This document shows, one piece after another, positions 25,805 to 40,624 of a stretch of 64,000 bases of DNA. The notes below the pieces were generated by a model. That model made no database searches and had not been told where the DNA came from. It saw only the letters and a program-made list of their open reading frames with translations. The stretch is taken from NCBI GenBank assembly GCA_039586555.1, contig JBDHKE010000013.1, positions 3,781 to 67,780 on the forward strand, read 5' to 3'. The position numbers and the translations under genes were made by a program. Within the stretch, counting starts at the first letter, position 1. Each line of letters begins with the position of its first letter. Source of the DNA: Gemmatimonadota bacterium. GTDB lineage: Bacteria > Gemmatimonadota > Gemmatimonadetes > Longimicrobiales > Gaopeijiaceae.

Positions 25805-26263
25805 TCAGTTCCCCTCCGCCCGCTCGACGCGGACCTCGATCTCCACCGTTACTTCAGAGTGGAGGCGGATCGGAACCTTGTAGACCCCTATGGCCTTGAG
25901 AGGCTCTTCCATGGCCACCTGTCTCCTATCCAGGGCGAAGTCCAACCCCGTCTCGTTGGCCCGGTCGGCCACGTCTGCGTTGGTGACCGATCCGAACAGC
26001 CTTCCTTCCTCCCCAGCTCGGGCCTTGAACGAGAGCACGGTCCCCTCCAGCTGTGCGGATCGCCGTCGCGCTTCGAGGTAGTCCCGCTTCGCCCGATCCT
26101 CGGCTCGTGCCTGCTCCTCCTCGAGGCGGCGGATGTTGGCGGCCGAAGCTTCGTATGCGAGGTCTTGCGGCAGGAGGTAGTTCCGGGCGTATCCCGGCTT
26201 CACGTTGACCACGTCGCCGGGCTCTCCCAAGCGATCAACGGTCTTTTTCAGGATCACCTTCAT
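25805..26263 (-). CDS. rplI: 50S ribosomal protein L9
   Basis: MKVILKKTVDRLGEPGDVVNVKPGYARNYLLPQ... is the L9 N-domain. The start is at the internal Met of the track ORF. Confidence 0.88.
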   Translation of the reverse strand: MKVILKKTVDRLGEPGDVVNVKPGYARNYLLPQDLAYEASAANIRRLEEEQARAEDRAKRDYLEARRRSAQLEGTVLSFKARAGEEGRLFGSVTNADVADRANETGLDFALDRRQVAMEEPLKAIGVYKVPIRLHSEVTVEIEVRVERAEGN

Positions 26264-26285: not shown

Positions 26286-27212
26286 TCACCCAAGAATCGC
26301 ACGGGCTCGCTCGCGCAGGTCCAGCCATGTGTCTCCGAGGCCGATGATCAAGGCTCCGGCAACGACCACCGGGGCCAGAAAGAGGAGCCCCAGGAGCACC
26401 AGCACGAAGCCCAGGAGGGACACCCCCCCAGCGAGGAAGGTCACGACTGCGGCACCCCTCACGGCGTACAAGGTGCCCACGAACACCACAGCGTTGGTCC
26501 CCAGTCGGTTCCAGCCTTCGCCCAGGCGAAACACCGCAGCCGCGAGGCCGAGAATCAGAATCCAGATCAGCTGGTCGTTGAAGTGGAAGTCCCTCAACGG
26601 CCCGAGTGCTCGATCGCTGCCGTGCACGAAACGCACATAGAGCCACCACGCGACACCCAGCCCGGCCACTGAGGAAAGACCAAGCAAAGCGGGGAAGATC
26701 ATACCCTGTATCTCCGCGGCTCTGAGCACGGCACCGACCACAGCCGGCGAAAGTGCCGCATCGCCCTGCAGGATCCTCATGGCCTCCAGCGCGGCCCCGA
26801 CCCCGGTTCGTATCCGGTCGTTCATGACCCAGTCCGCCACGGTCCAACTCTCGGGTCGCACGAGGAAGAAGAGGGCACTGGCCGCAAAGGCGCCCCCTAC
26901 CGCTCCAAGCGCTCTCGGAACGAATCCCCACCCTGGCCAGCGCAGCGTCAGCGCAACGAAGCAGCCGCCCACCAGCAAGGCCCAACCTCTCTCCAGGTAC
27001 CAGGATCCGGTCTTGGGGGACCCGACCATCACCAGGGCCAACAACAGCGCCGCCGCCACGAGCCCGAACCCCCTCCGGTCGGGCATCAGCACCGTCATCA
27101 GGGCAAGCGGAAGGATGACGAGGACAAGAGGCTGACCGGAAAGGACGATGGCCGCTCCCAGGAGCGCAGCCGCACGAAGCCACCGTCGCTCCCCCGGATG
27201 GGGCTTATCCAT
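26286..27212 (-). CDS. DUF2232 (YybS-like) polytopic membrane protein
   Basis: 308 aa with about 8 hydrophobic helices, located between rpsF/rpsR and rplI as yybS is in Firmicutes. Confidence 0.55.
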   Translation of the reverse strand: MDKPHPGERRWLRAAALLGAAIVLSGQPLVLVILPLALMTVLMPDRRGFGLVAAALLLALVMVGSPKTGSWYLERGWALLVGGCFVALTLRWPGWGFVPRALGAVGGAFAASALFFLVRPESWTVADWVMNDRIRTGVGAALEAMRILQGDAALSPAVVGAVLRAAEIQGMIFPALLGLSSVAGLGVAWWLYVRFVHGSDRALGPLRDFHFNDQLIWILILGLAAAVFRLGEGWNRLGTNAVVFVGTLYAVRGAAVVTFLAGGVSLLGFVLVLLGLLFLAPVVVAGALIIGLGDTWLDLRERARAILG

Positions 27213-27217
27213 CCAGA

Positions 27218-27853
27218 CTAGATCCCGTGATCGCGCACGTAGGGAAGAAGGGAAAGGTAGCGAGCCCGCTTGATTGCCGTGGTGAGATGACGCTGGAAGC
27301 CCGCGGAGACCTTGGTGGTTCGTCGCGGCAGGATCTTGCCCTGCTCCGTGATGAACCTGGAGAGAGTCGCCACGTCCTTGTAGTTGAGAAGAAGGATCCG
27401 CGGTCCGTCCACGCGGCGACGACGACCGCGGCCGCCGCTGAACTCGGGCGGGCTGGAATCTTCATCCTCTTCTTCCTCGTCCTCCAGCGGATCCTCTTCG
27501 GGCTCTTCGTCGCTCGCGGCAGTCGCCCGACTCTCGGCCAGTATGGACATCCCGGACGTAGGTTCCCCTTCGTTCACAACGATCAGATACCGCCTCACCT
27601 GATCGTCCAGCCTGAGAAGTCGTTCGAAGGCGGGAAGGCTCTCCGGATCGGTCCGGAACTGGGCCACCACGTAGTAACCGCTCTTGAGGCCGCCGATGGG
27701 GTAGGCCAGCTGGCGCGCTCCCCAGTGATCGACGGCAATGATCTCGCCCCCGTCTTTCTCCACCAGAGGGGCGTGGAGCCGTTCGAGCTTCTTTTCGACC
27801 GCCCCCTCGTCCAGGGCCGGATCGAAGATATAGACGACCTCGTAATCGCGCAT
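27218..27853 (-). CDS. rpsF/rpsR: Ribosomal protein S6-S18 fusion (rpsF-rpsR in one reading frame)
   Basis: Residues 1-~110 are S6 ([12 protein letters not shown]...[13 protein letters not shown]...YYVVAQF) with an acidic tail ([20 protein letters not shown]). This continues in frame into a complete S18 ([66 protein letters not shown]). There is no stop codon between them. Confidence 0.78.
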
Positions 27854-27936
27854 GTTCGTTTCCCTCGGTCCGCATCAGAACGGGCTCCGCGATGTCCACG
27901 GAGCGGGGTTAGCCTGATAAGATACTGCCTATAGGT

Positions 27937-27970
27937 CCCTTCTGACTAGATGTTGACCCTTCTGACTAGA
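27937..27970. repeat. Direct repeat cccttctgactaga x2 (spacer tgttga) at the ychF 3' end and the rpsF promoter region
   Basis: Two exact 14-nt copies at 27937-27950 and 27957-27970; the second overlaps the ychF stop codon. Confidence 0.4.
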
Positions 27971-29063
27971 CGCTAAAGCGGAAGAGGAGGATGTCTCCGT
28001 CCTGCACGACGTAGTCCTTGCCCTCCGACCGCACCCGCCCCAGCTCCCTGGCAGACTTCATCGATCCGGCGACCACGAATTCCTCGAACTGAATGGTCTC
28101 GGCCCGGATGAAGCCCCGCTGGAAGTCCGTGTGAATCGCACCGGCGGCCTCCGGAGCGAGTGAGCCTCTCGGTAGGATCCACGCTCGGGCTTCCTTTTCG
28201 TTGAAGGTGAAGAAGGTGATGAGGCCCAGTAGTCCGTAGGCGGCGCGTATCAGTCGGCTCAGCCCCGCTTCGGATACGCCCAGCTCGTCGAGGAACTCCT
28301 TTCGCTCGTCCGGAGCCAGCTCGGCGAGCTCCGCTTCGATTCGAGAACTCACGGCGATCATCGGTCCCGCGGATTCTCGCTCCAGCGCATCGGCGAGCCG
28401 CCGGGTGAACTCGTTCTCGCAATCGGGCAGGTCCGACTCCCCCACGTTCGCGACGAAGAGGACCGGTTTCGCCGTCAGAAGGTTGTACGAACGGACCCGC
28501 TGCCACCGGTCCGGAGGTAGATCGAGGGACCGGACCGGCAGACCCTGATCCAGCGTCTCTCGGCAGGGAAGGAGAGCCTGCTCTTCGGCAAGGGCTTCTC
28601 CTTCGCCTGATCGCGCTCTCTTGCTCACCTTCTCGAGACGACGCTCGACCGCCTCCAGATCGGCGAGAGCCAGCTCCGTATCAACGATCCCGCGGTCCCT
28701 CACCGGATCCACGGTTCCCAGGACATGGGCCACGTCGGGATCTTCGAAGCAACGGAGAACATGGGCAATCGCGTCAACGTCGCGAATGTGCCCCAGGAAT
28801 TGGTTCCCCAGGCCTTCGCCGTGGGAAGCACCCTCCACCAGGCCCGCGACATCCACGAACTGGATGAACGTGGGAACACGTTGGGGTGACCTTACGAGCG
28901 CGTGAAGACGGTCGAGACGCGCCTCCGGGACTTCCACCGTACCCACGTTGGGATCGACCGTGCAGAAAGGGTAGTTGTCCGCCGCCGCCCCCGCCGCCGT
29001 CAAGGCGTTGAAGAGGCAGGATTTGCCGACGTTGGGAAGCCCGACGATTCCGACCTTGAGCAT
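27966..29063 (-). CDS. ychF: Ribosome-binding ATPase YchF (OLA1)
   Basis: MLKVGIVGLPNVGKSCLFNALT (G1), a TGS-like C-terminus and the overall YchF pattern. Confidence 0.9.
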   Translation of the reverse strand: MLKVGIVGLPNVGKSCLFNALTAAGAAADNYPFCTVDPNVGTVEVPEARLDRLHALVRSPQRVPTFIQFVDVAGLVEGASHGEGLGNQFLGHIRDVDAIAHVLRCFEDPDVAHVLGTVDPVRDRGIVDTELALADLEAVERRLEKVSKRARSGEGEALAEEQALLPCRETLDQGLPVRSLDLPPDRWQRVRSYNLLTAKPVLFVANVGESDLPDCENEFTRRLADALERESAGPMIAVSSRIEAELAELAPDERKEFLDELGVSEAGLSRLIRAAYGLLGLITFFTFNEKEARAWILPRGSLAPEAAGAIHTDFQRGFIRAETIQFEEFVVAGSMKSARELGRVRSEGKDYVVQDGDILLFRFSV

Positions 29064-40553: not shown

Positions 40554-40624
40554 TTGGCCCGGGTGGATTCGAACCACCACCGCCGGTTCCAAAGACCGGT
40601 GTCCTGCCATTAGACGACGGGCCA
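40554..40624 (-). tRNA. tRNA-Gln (anticodon UUG)
   Basis: Hand-folded cloverleaf: acceptor UGGCCCG/CGGGCCA, anticodon stem CCGGU/ACCGG with loop CUUUGGA (anticodon UUG), T-arm GGUGG-UUCGAAU-CCACC, discriminator A. The 3' CCA is not encoded. Confidence 0.8.

Follow-up and report, generated by a model that had tools for sequence, protein, structure and literature searches.

The window analysed here, a 64-kb stretch (64,000 nucleotides) of a contig from a Gemmatimonadota bacterium, carries on its minus strand a single open reading frame, rpsF::rpsR, in which the coding sequences of ribosomal proteins S6 (bS6) and S18 (bS18) are joined in frame. The ORF occupies positions 27218..27853, starts with ATG, ends with a TAG stop codon at 27218-27220 and encodes a protein of 211 aa with a predicted mass of 23.9 kDa and a pI of 5.1. 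The Pfam model for Ribosomal_S6 (PF01250) matches aa 4-92 with an E-value of 2.7e-24 and a score of 85.6 bits against a cut-off of 27, covering positions 2-89 of the 90-position profile, and the model for Ribosomal_S18 (PF01084) matches aa 156-203 (E 8.4e-21; 74.3 bits against a cut-off of 21). The NCBIfam equivalog models gave the same picture, with TIGR00166 (S6) matching aa 1-95 at a score of 73.5 (cut-off 42.9) and TIGR00165 (S18) matching aa 153-208 at 78.4 (cut-off 38.75; profile positions 15-70 of 70). The S6 and S18 profile scores of this ORF are far beyond chance and, with both domains above the curated Pfam and NCBIfam cut-offs, the in-frame fusion put forward in the original prediction is borne out; the stop-free junction that it quoted, without naming a strand, is reproduced by translation of the ORF. 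No S6 or S18 homologue other than the fusion was found within the 64-kb window.

The fused chain begins with the bS6 domain at aa 1-95 (27569..27853, minus strand), as delimited by PF01250, TIGR00166, AlphaFold and alignment to PDB chains. The S6 fold is followed by an extension at aa 96-107 (27533..27568, minus strand) that is conserved in the clade, with G96, E97, P98 and S103 invariant in 40 fused proteins, and then by an acidic low-complexity spacer at aa 108-133 (27455..27532, minus strand), the former S6 acidic tail, in which 15 of the 26 residues are D or E. The junction at aa 134-151 (27401..27454, minus strand), recognised from its conserved alignment columns, combines a fusion-specific SPPEF with the S18 basic arm GGRGRRRR and leads into the bS18 core at aa 152-211 (27221..27400, minus strand), which is matched by PF01084 and TIGR00165 and contains no Cys. 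S6 chains in the PDB align to aa 1-95 of the fusion and bS18 chains to aa 140-209, and the PDB holds no single chain that covers both domains. An AlphaFold2 model, calculated from an alignment of 40 fused proteins, is confident for the S6 half only and does not define how the two domains are arranged relative to each other: the S6 part (aa 1-95) has pLDDT values of 75-92, and its elements (E2-10, H16-32, E37-53, E56-68, H70-82 and E86-94) follow the beta-alpha-beta-beta-alpha-beta order of a split beta-alpha-beta ferredoxin-like fold, while both the acidic spacer and the S18 part have pLDDT values below 50.

On the minus strand the gene order is ychF, leader, rpsF::rpsR, DUF2232 and rplI, the canonical neighbourhood of the rpsF operon. 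Such operons place rpsF first and rpsR downstream, often with rplI and optionally with ssb or priB, and this is the gene order found at the fusion locus. The gene for rplI (bL9), usually the last of the rpsF operon, lies at 25805..26263 (minus strand) and was identified by the Pfam domains L9_N and L9_C. Between the rpsR portion and rplI sits a gene for a DUF2232 membrane protein (26286..27212, minus strand; Pfam), whose ATG lies 5 nt past the fusion stop codon. The arrangement is kept on a 4.46-Mb contig (L074; contig_25583 of ERZ25039549), where the fusion is followed by DUF2232, rplI and rsfS in the same synteny. At the position equivalent to the DUF2232 gene, the Legionellales-like loci described below carry an unannotated 302-aa ORF. 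Elsewhere in the window, a tRNA gene at 40554-40624 (minus strand, 65.4 bits) is the sole Rfam match at gathering thresholds.

The fused architecture is shared by the closest relatives of this gene. Among about 5.8 billion proteins searched, 2072 relatives were found, and all of the 120 best (120/120) contain both Pfam domains, are 206-237 aa long and are 63-72% identical to the protein in the window. These 120 come from independent assemblies (NCBI, JGI, ENA and Logan); few have a name, and in those cases it is that of a Gemmatimonadota, Longimicrobiales or Gemmatimonadales MAG. At the level of loci, we surveyed 73 on contigs taken from one genome per species, detecting the S6 and S18 halves by separate tblastn searches. 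Both halves lie in one stop-free frame in 10 of the 73 (L001-L010, with L005 on the 3.31-Mb chromosome OZ244873.1), and a stop codon or a change of frame separates them in each of the 58 other loci in which both halves were detected (58/58). Together with the 4.46-Mb contig, the ten species representatives amount to 11 further loci from unrelated studies with the fused architecture, at 55-72% identity. The comparison of rpsF and rpsR in related genomes, which the original prediction had proposed as a check, thus comes out in its favour, since the closest relatives are fused and stop-free.

The junction itself is as conserved as the folded domains across 40 aligned fused proteins, in which the core residues of both domains are also kept. 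P135, P136, F138, G143, R144-R147 and P151 are invariant in this set, and the acidic spacer that precedes them differs in length between fused homologues, being about 20 aa in the shortest and over 100 aa in the longest. The 13-residue junction motif is invariant as protein while its codons vary synonymously: over 26 junction codons in 12 fused genes, pairwise comparison gave 676 synonymous and 359 nonsynonymous codon differences, and the Arg, Gly and Pro codons interchange freely beneath invariant amino acids. Such synonymous turnover under unchanging residues indicates that translation continues across the junction in this frame, which purifying selection maintains. The suggestion that the fusion might reflect a lost stop codon holds as an account of its ancient evolutionary origin and fails as an account of a recent lesion, given that the fusion is clade-wide and its junction is under selection.

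Alignment of the junction with separate S18 proteins shows that GGRGRRRR corresponds to the N-terminus of Staphylococcus aureus bS18, GGRRRKKVCYF. This stretch is therefore the native basic N-terminal arm of S18, so that S18 is essentially complete from about residue 139 and only SPPEF is specific to the fusion. The description of the ORF as a complete S6 and a complete S18 accordingly stands for S6 with its acidic tail and for the basic N-terminal arm of S18, and needs amendment for the S18 core, which has no CX2C…CX2H zinc motif. In structures of bacterial ribosomes this motif binds Zn2+ (PMC11791143). Neither the window protein nor the product of any of the 11 other fused genes contains a Cys, so that the motif of the Zn-binding ('C+') bS18 subtype is absent from all 12 fused proteins, and it is present in the S18 of unfused Gemmatimonadota. 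Judged from these sequences, fusion coincides with the loss of the zinc knuckle, a correlation that comes from one evolutionary event. In the human mitoribosome, bS18m and bS6m are cross-linked through a shared [2Fe-2S] cluster (PMC11791143). Like Zn-binding bS18, this is an evolutionary way to cross-link or rigidify the S6-S18 module, and the peptide tether of the fusion may have an analogous stabilising role; the mitoribosomal cross-link is, however, a metal centre, as opposed to a peptide bond here, and the fused clade is devoid of every ligand residue.

The distribution of the fusion within Gemmatimonadota points to a single origin. In a neighbour-joining tree built from the S6 domain and S18 core together, the 12 fused genes form one clade with 100% bootstrap support, which is nested inside a Gemmatimonadota clade with 92% support. 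From this monophyly it follows that the fusion happened once and was then inherited, and the tree places this single event in the ancestor of a large Gemmatimonadota clade, the members of which are mostly labelled Longimicrobiales or Gemmatimonadota MAGs. One fused gene of the Gemmatimonadota type (L008, JAHEKL010000139.1) carries the title 'Gammaproteobacteria bacterium' MAG and groups with those of the Longimicrobiales L007 and L009; this 7.3-kb contig was probably mis-binned. The unfused sister lineages (L011-L024, including Gemmatimonadaceae) share with the fused ones the locus, a long acidic S6 tail and a related leader. They differ in that the stop codon is retained, and their S18 begins MAFRKVCKFCE… and carries CX2C…CX2H. 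In these genomes the rpsF stop is followed after 3-6 nt by the ATG of rpsR, as in one junction that reads ...DEGKE, stop codon, SMAFRKVCKFCE.... In 6 of 13 unfused Gemmatimonadota loci, rpsF and rpsR lie in the same frame with exactly one intervening stop, which means that a single stop-codon substitution could fuse the genes. The S6 proteins of several unfused loci (L011, L012, L014, L017, L019 and L021) end in exceptionally long acidic low-complexity tails of about 40-100 residues that are mostly D/E, and the interval of 3-6 nt between their stop and rpsR suggests tight translational coupling. It had been suggested that the fusion would explain why ssb is missing between the two genes. We found no support for this, since unfused Gemmatimonadota and other phyla already have rpsF directly before rpsR, the latter including Marinimicrobia, Calditrichota, Desulfohalobiaceae and Bacteroidota. 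This adjacency is therefore ancestral, and is a precondition of the fusion and not its consequence.

Immediately 5' of the fusion lies a leader (27854..27908, minus strand) that we assign to the S6:S18-binding (S6S18CBM or rpsF-leader) type on the basis of its conservation in 12 fused loci (this one, L001-L010 and L074), its predicted folds and its covariation. It comprises CCC as the arm complementary to the Shine-Dalgarno sequence (SD), a GCUCCGUGG…UCGCGGAGC hairpin, a 17-nt loop CCGUUCUGAUGCGGACC and the SD GAGGGA, located 8 nt before the AUG. In the 12 fused loci the 55-nt leader is conserved as (U)CCC, a GCUCC…GGRGC hairpin with a variable tip, CCGU-N5-12-RCGG-ACC and GAGGGA, with the AUG 6-10 nt further on, and individual minimum free energy folds repeatedly return this common plan, in which the P2 hairpin has 9 bp, P1 has 3 bp and GAGGGA pairs with CCC. 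The leaders of unfused relatives and of other phyla follow this plan too, as CUCCU / GCUCC…GGAGC / C(G/A)…AGACC / AGGAG. Across 21 leaders, positions 6-9 of P2 are occupied by 4-6 pair types, which amounts to covariation in the stem, and the 5' arm forms more base pairs with its own SD (3.9 bp) than with SDs from the other group (2.8 bp). Pairs were counted by a script in which the arms are set by maximal pairing, so that mismatches are excluded by construction; a MAFFT alignment of the leaders was not used for these counts, as its fused and unfused rows were out of register by one column in the 3' arm.

The S6S18CBM is defined as a hairpin of 7-25 bp with an 8-23-nt bulge that contains CCR and an SD in the paired 3' strand, directly upstream of the rpsF start (PMC3854524), and the leader of the fusion has this published architecture. 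In common with the known RpsF_leader (Rfam RF02893; Matelska 2013; Fu 2014; Babina 2015), it lies directly upstream of rpsF, combines a hairpin with a 3' bulge that bears CCG and holds the SD in its closing stem. It differs in that the bulge has grown into a small hairpin, CCGU…ACGG, (U)CCC pairs with an SD that reads GAGGGA, the ligand would presumably be a single chain, and the leader of the fused clade falls below every Rfam threshold. RF02893 (gathering threshold 37 bits) gave no match in the whole window at threshold, nor in positions 27750-28050 at E<=10, and the E. coli leader, used as a control, scored 110 bits; the Rfam model appears to be too narrow for Gemmatimonadota. In E. coli the motif mediates repression by the S6:S18 complex and by neither protein alone (PMC4647458). 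The conservation of the leader suggests that the single chain probably still autoregulates its own translation.

A scan for sigma-70 promoters and terminators found no consensus promoter, and terminator-like matches occurred at chance level. About 10-15 nt upstream of the first stem of the leader lies a TAnnTT(T)-like element (TATCTT, TAGCTTT, TACCTTT or TATGTT), which is TATCTT at 27919-27924 on the minus strand of the window and has equivalents in L001-L011, L019, L022-L024 and L074. The element seen here is closer to the Bacteroidota-type -7 promoter element, TAnnTTTG, than to a sigma-70 -10 box. Between ychF and the rpsF leader lies a perfect direct repeat of 13 nt, with copies at 27937-27949 and 27957-27969 spaced by 20 nt (cccttctgactag on the plus strand, CTAGTCAGAAGGG on the minus strand), the second of which overlaps the stop codon of ychF. 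No such repeat was seen in the other leaders; this one is possibly an operator, an UP-like element or a duplication.

S6 and S18 are a textbook pair that dimerise first and bind rRNA cooperatively, joining the 16S central domain at h22-h23a after S15, and it is the dimer, not a single protein, that represses its own mRNA. Against this background, we propose that the fusion polypeptide would go whole into the 30S platform, where its S6 and S18 moieties would dock on 16S rRNA h22-h23a like the normal heterodimer, with the former acidic tail of S6 acting as a flexible tether. Fusion would ensure a 1:1 stoichiometry and make dimer formation intramolecular, and it may also compensate for the lost zinc knuckle. 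Excess free fusion protein would bind the CCG-containing leader, occlude the Shine-Dalgarno sequence and so repress its own translation. Taking the conservation of the junction together with the distribution of the fused gene, we consider it highly likely that rpsF::rpsR is a true gene fusion, fixed long ago, whose product is a single-chain bS6-bS18 ribosomal protein. It is very probably the sole source of S6 and S18 for the ribosome.

The alternative that survives best, though we regard it as improbable, is that the one ORF yields two proteins, S18 being made additionally or exclusively as a separate chain, by internal initiation near codon 148 or by cleavage in the spacer or junction. Eukaryotic ubiquitin-ribosomal-protein fusions offer a polyprotein-like precedent, and the length of the spacer and its presumed disorder (pLDDT below 50) would leave it accessible to proteases. 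Codon 148 is GTG in this gene. Of the 12 fused genes, 6 have ATG or GTG at this codon, but the other 6 have ATC, GTC or CAC (V/M/H/I in the protein set), and no Shine-Dalgarno-like sequence precedes the codon; being unconserved and unaccompanied by an SD, the internal GTG start was rejected. Initiation at this codon would, moreover, drop the GRGRRRR arm, which lies upstream of it and is homologous to the native N-terminus of S18, and the invariance of SPPEF, further upstream still, would be difficult to account for if this motif did not belong to a functional protein. Some annotation pipelines do call a 64-aa S18 from that Met (P0187, P0123), but these short calls sit on short or broken contigs.

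We consider it less probable still that the fusion represents an additional paralogue, perhaps with a role outside the ribosome such as that of a dedicated regulator, and that separate S6 and S18 proteins are encoded elsewhere. Other phyla are known to have zinc-linked paralogues of S18 (C+ and C- forms), and the sequence inspected comprised the 64-kb window of this genome and, for each relative, no more than about 12 kb. Against this stand the canonical rpsF-rpsR-rplI position that the fusion occupies behind an rpsF leader, the lack of a second copy in the 64-kb window and the conserved core residues of both domains. Furthermore, a set of 1.84 billion representatives yielded no credible stand-alone S18 close to the fused one. 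The candidates, short S18-like sequences at 72-79% identity, were rejected as fragments or chimeras of fused genes; several of these short entries still carry ..SPPEF.GxRGRRRR, and others begin at contig breaks in the acidic repeat. In a number of public calls (P0145, P0148, P0150, P0155, P0181, P0187, P0139 and P0146), the acidic GA-rich repeat, at which assemblies break, is likewise the point of truncation or of a chimeric join. That this repeat is hard to assemble and that many database fragments end in it might favour an assembly or sequencing artefact, the alternative raised in the original prediction, or a very recent stop-codon loss or pseudogene in this genome alone, but we reject this as having a negligible chance of being correct, given the same architecture in all of the 120 best homologues from independent assemblies and in the 11 further loci, the protein-level conservation of the junction despite synonymous codon turnover, and the single clade formed by the fused genes.

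Fusions of S6 to S18 are also found outside this clade. An exhaustive HMMER scan of 1.84 billion representatives recovered further full-length two-domain proteins at 32-49% identity, and follow-up searches resolved two more lineages, with about 35 clusters of Legionellales/Gammaproteobacteria-like fusions, with one protein present on at least 23 contigs, and about 40 clusters of Bdellovibrionales-like fusions, some on contigs of 2-2.9 Mb. Where the loci were retrieved (L076 and L077, Legionellales-like; L078, Bdellovibrionales-like, on a 2.9-Mb contig of ERZ21831104), the fusion lies at the canonical locus upstream of rplI and dnaB. Fusions of the gammaproteobacterial type have no priB between their two halves. 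Both groups share with the Gemmatimonadota fusion the S6-then-S18 order, the locus, a basic stretch before the S18 core and the lack of a zinc motif. They differ in that each group carries S6 and S18 moieties typical of its own phylum, and in their short linkers of about 20-50 aa (the shortest, in the Legionellales-like group, about 20-25 aa), which are basic or mixed and contain neither an acidic run nor SPPEF. That each set of moieties is of its own phylum type points to separate origins, and on these sequences the S6-S18 fusion has arisen at least three times. Its occurrence as independent events at the same locus in two other lineages also indicates that the architecture is viable.

Compared with canonical bS6:bS18 in E. 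coli, Thermus thermophilus, Bacillus subtilis and S. aureus, in which rpsF and rpsR are separate, the Gemmatimonadota fusion keeps both domains, the gene order, the acidic S6 tail, the basic N-terminal arm of S18, rplI downstream and an S6:S18-type leader upstream. It differs in being one chain, joined through the acidic tail and the clade-specific SPPEF, with no ssb or priB between the two halves and with no free S6 C-terminus, no S18 start codon and no zinc knuckle. In Bacteroidia, the groove between bS6 and bS18 sequesters the 3' tail of 16S rRNA. A more ambitious possibility, which we offer tentatively and consider doubtful as a whole, is that covalent bS6-bS18 represents an adaptive, repeatedly evolved redesign of the 30S platform in three lineages. 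Under this proposal the Gemmatimonadota tether would replace the S18 zinc knuckle, the invariant 13-residue junction would make a new platform contact near the bS6/bS18 groove, thereby altering how the central domain assembles or how available the anti-Shine-Dalgarno sequence is, and at this site ribosome biogenesis would no longer depend on zinc.

The S6-S18 fusion seems never to have been described or studied before. A full-text search of the literature found no description of a natural bacterial S6-S18 fusion, in a corpus that covers subscription journals thinly and so leaves an earlier mention possible. Databases mostly name the fused proteins 'S6' and less often 'S18', with JGI occasionally using 'ribosomal protein S6/ribosomal protein S18'. 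When the fusion is annotated as 'S6' only, the genomes appear to lack rpsR, and this apparent absence can lower estimates of completeness and break marker-gene phylogenies that use S6 or S18. In E. coli, the C-terminus of S6 is the target of glutamylation by RimK; in the fused lineages a free S6 C-terminus would be dispensable. The fusion also connects covalent tethering with the disappearance of a structural zinc site, and it constitutes a clean 'Rosetta-stone' fusion of known partners. As a natural single-chain S6-S18, it provides a tool to test how much of the cooperativity of this pair is mere dimer formation.
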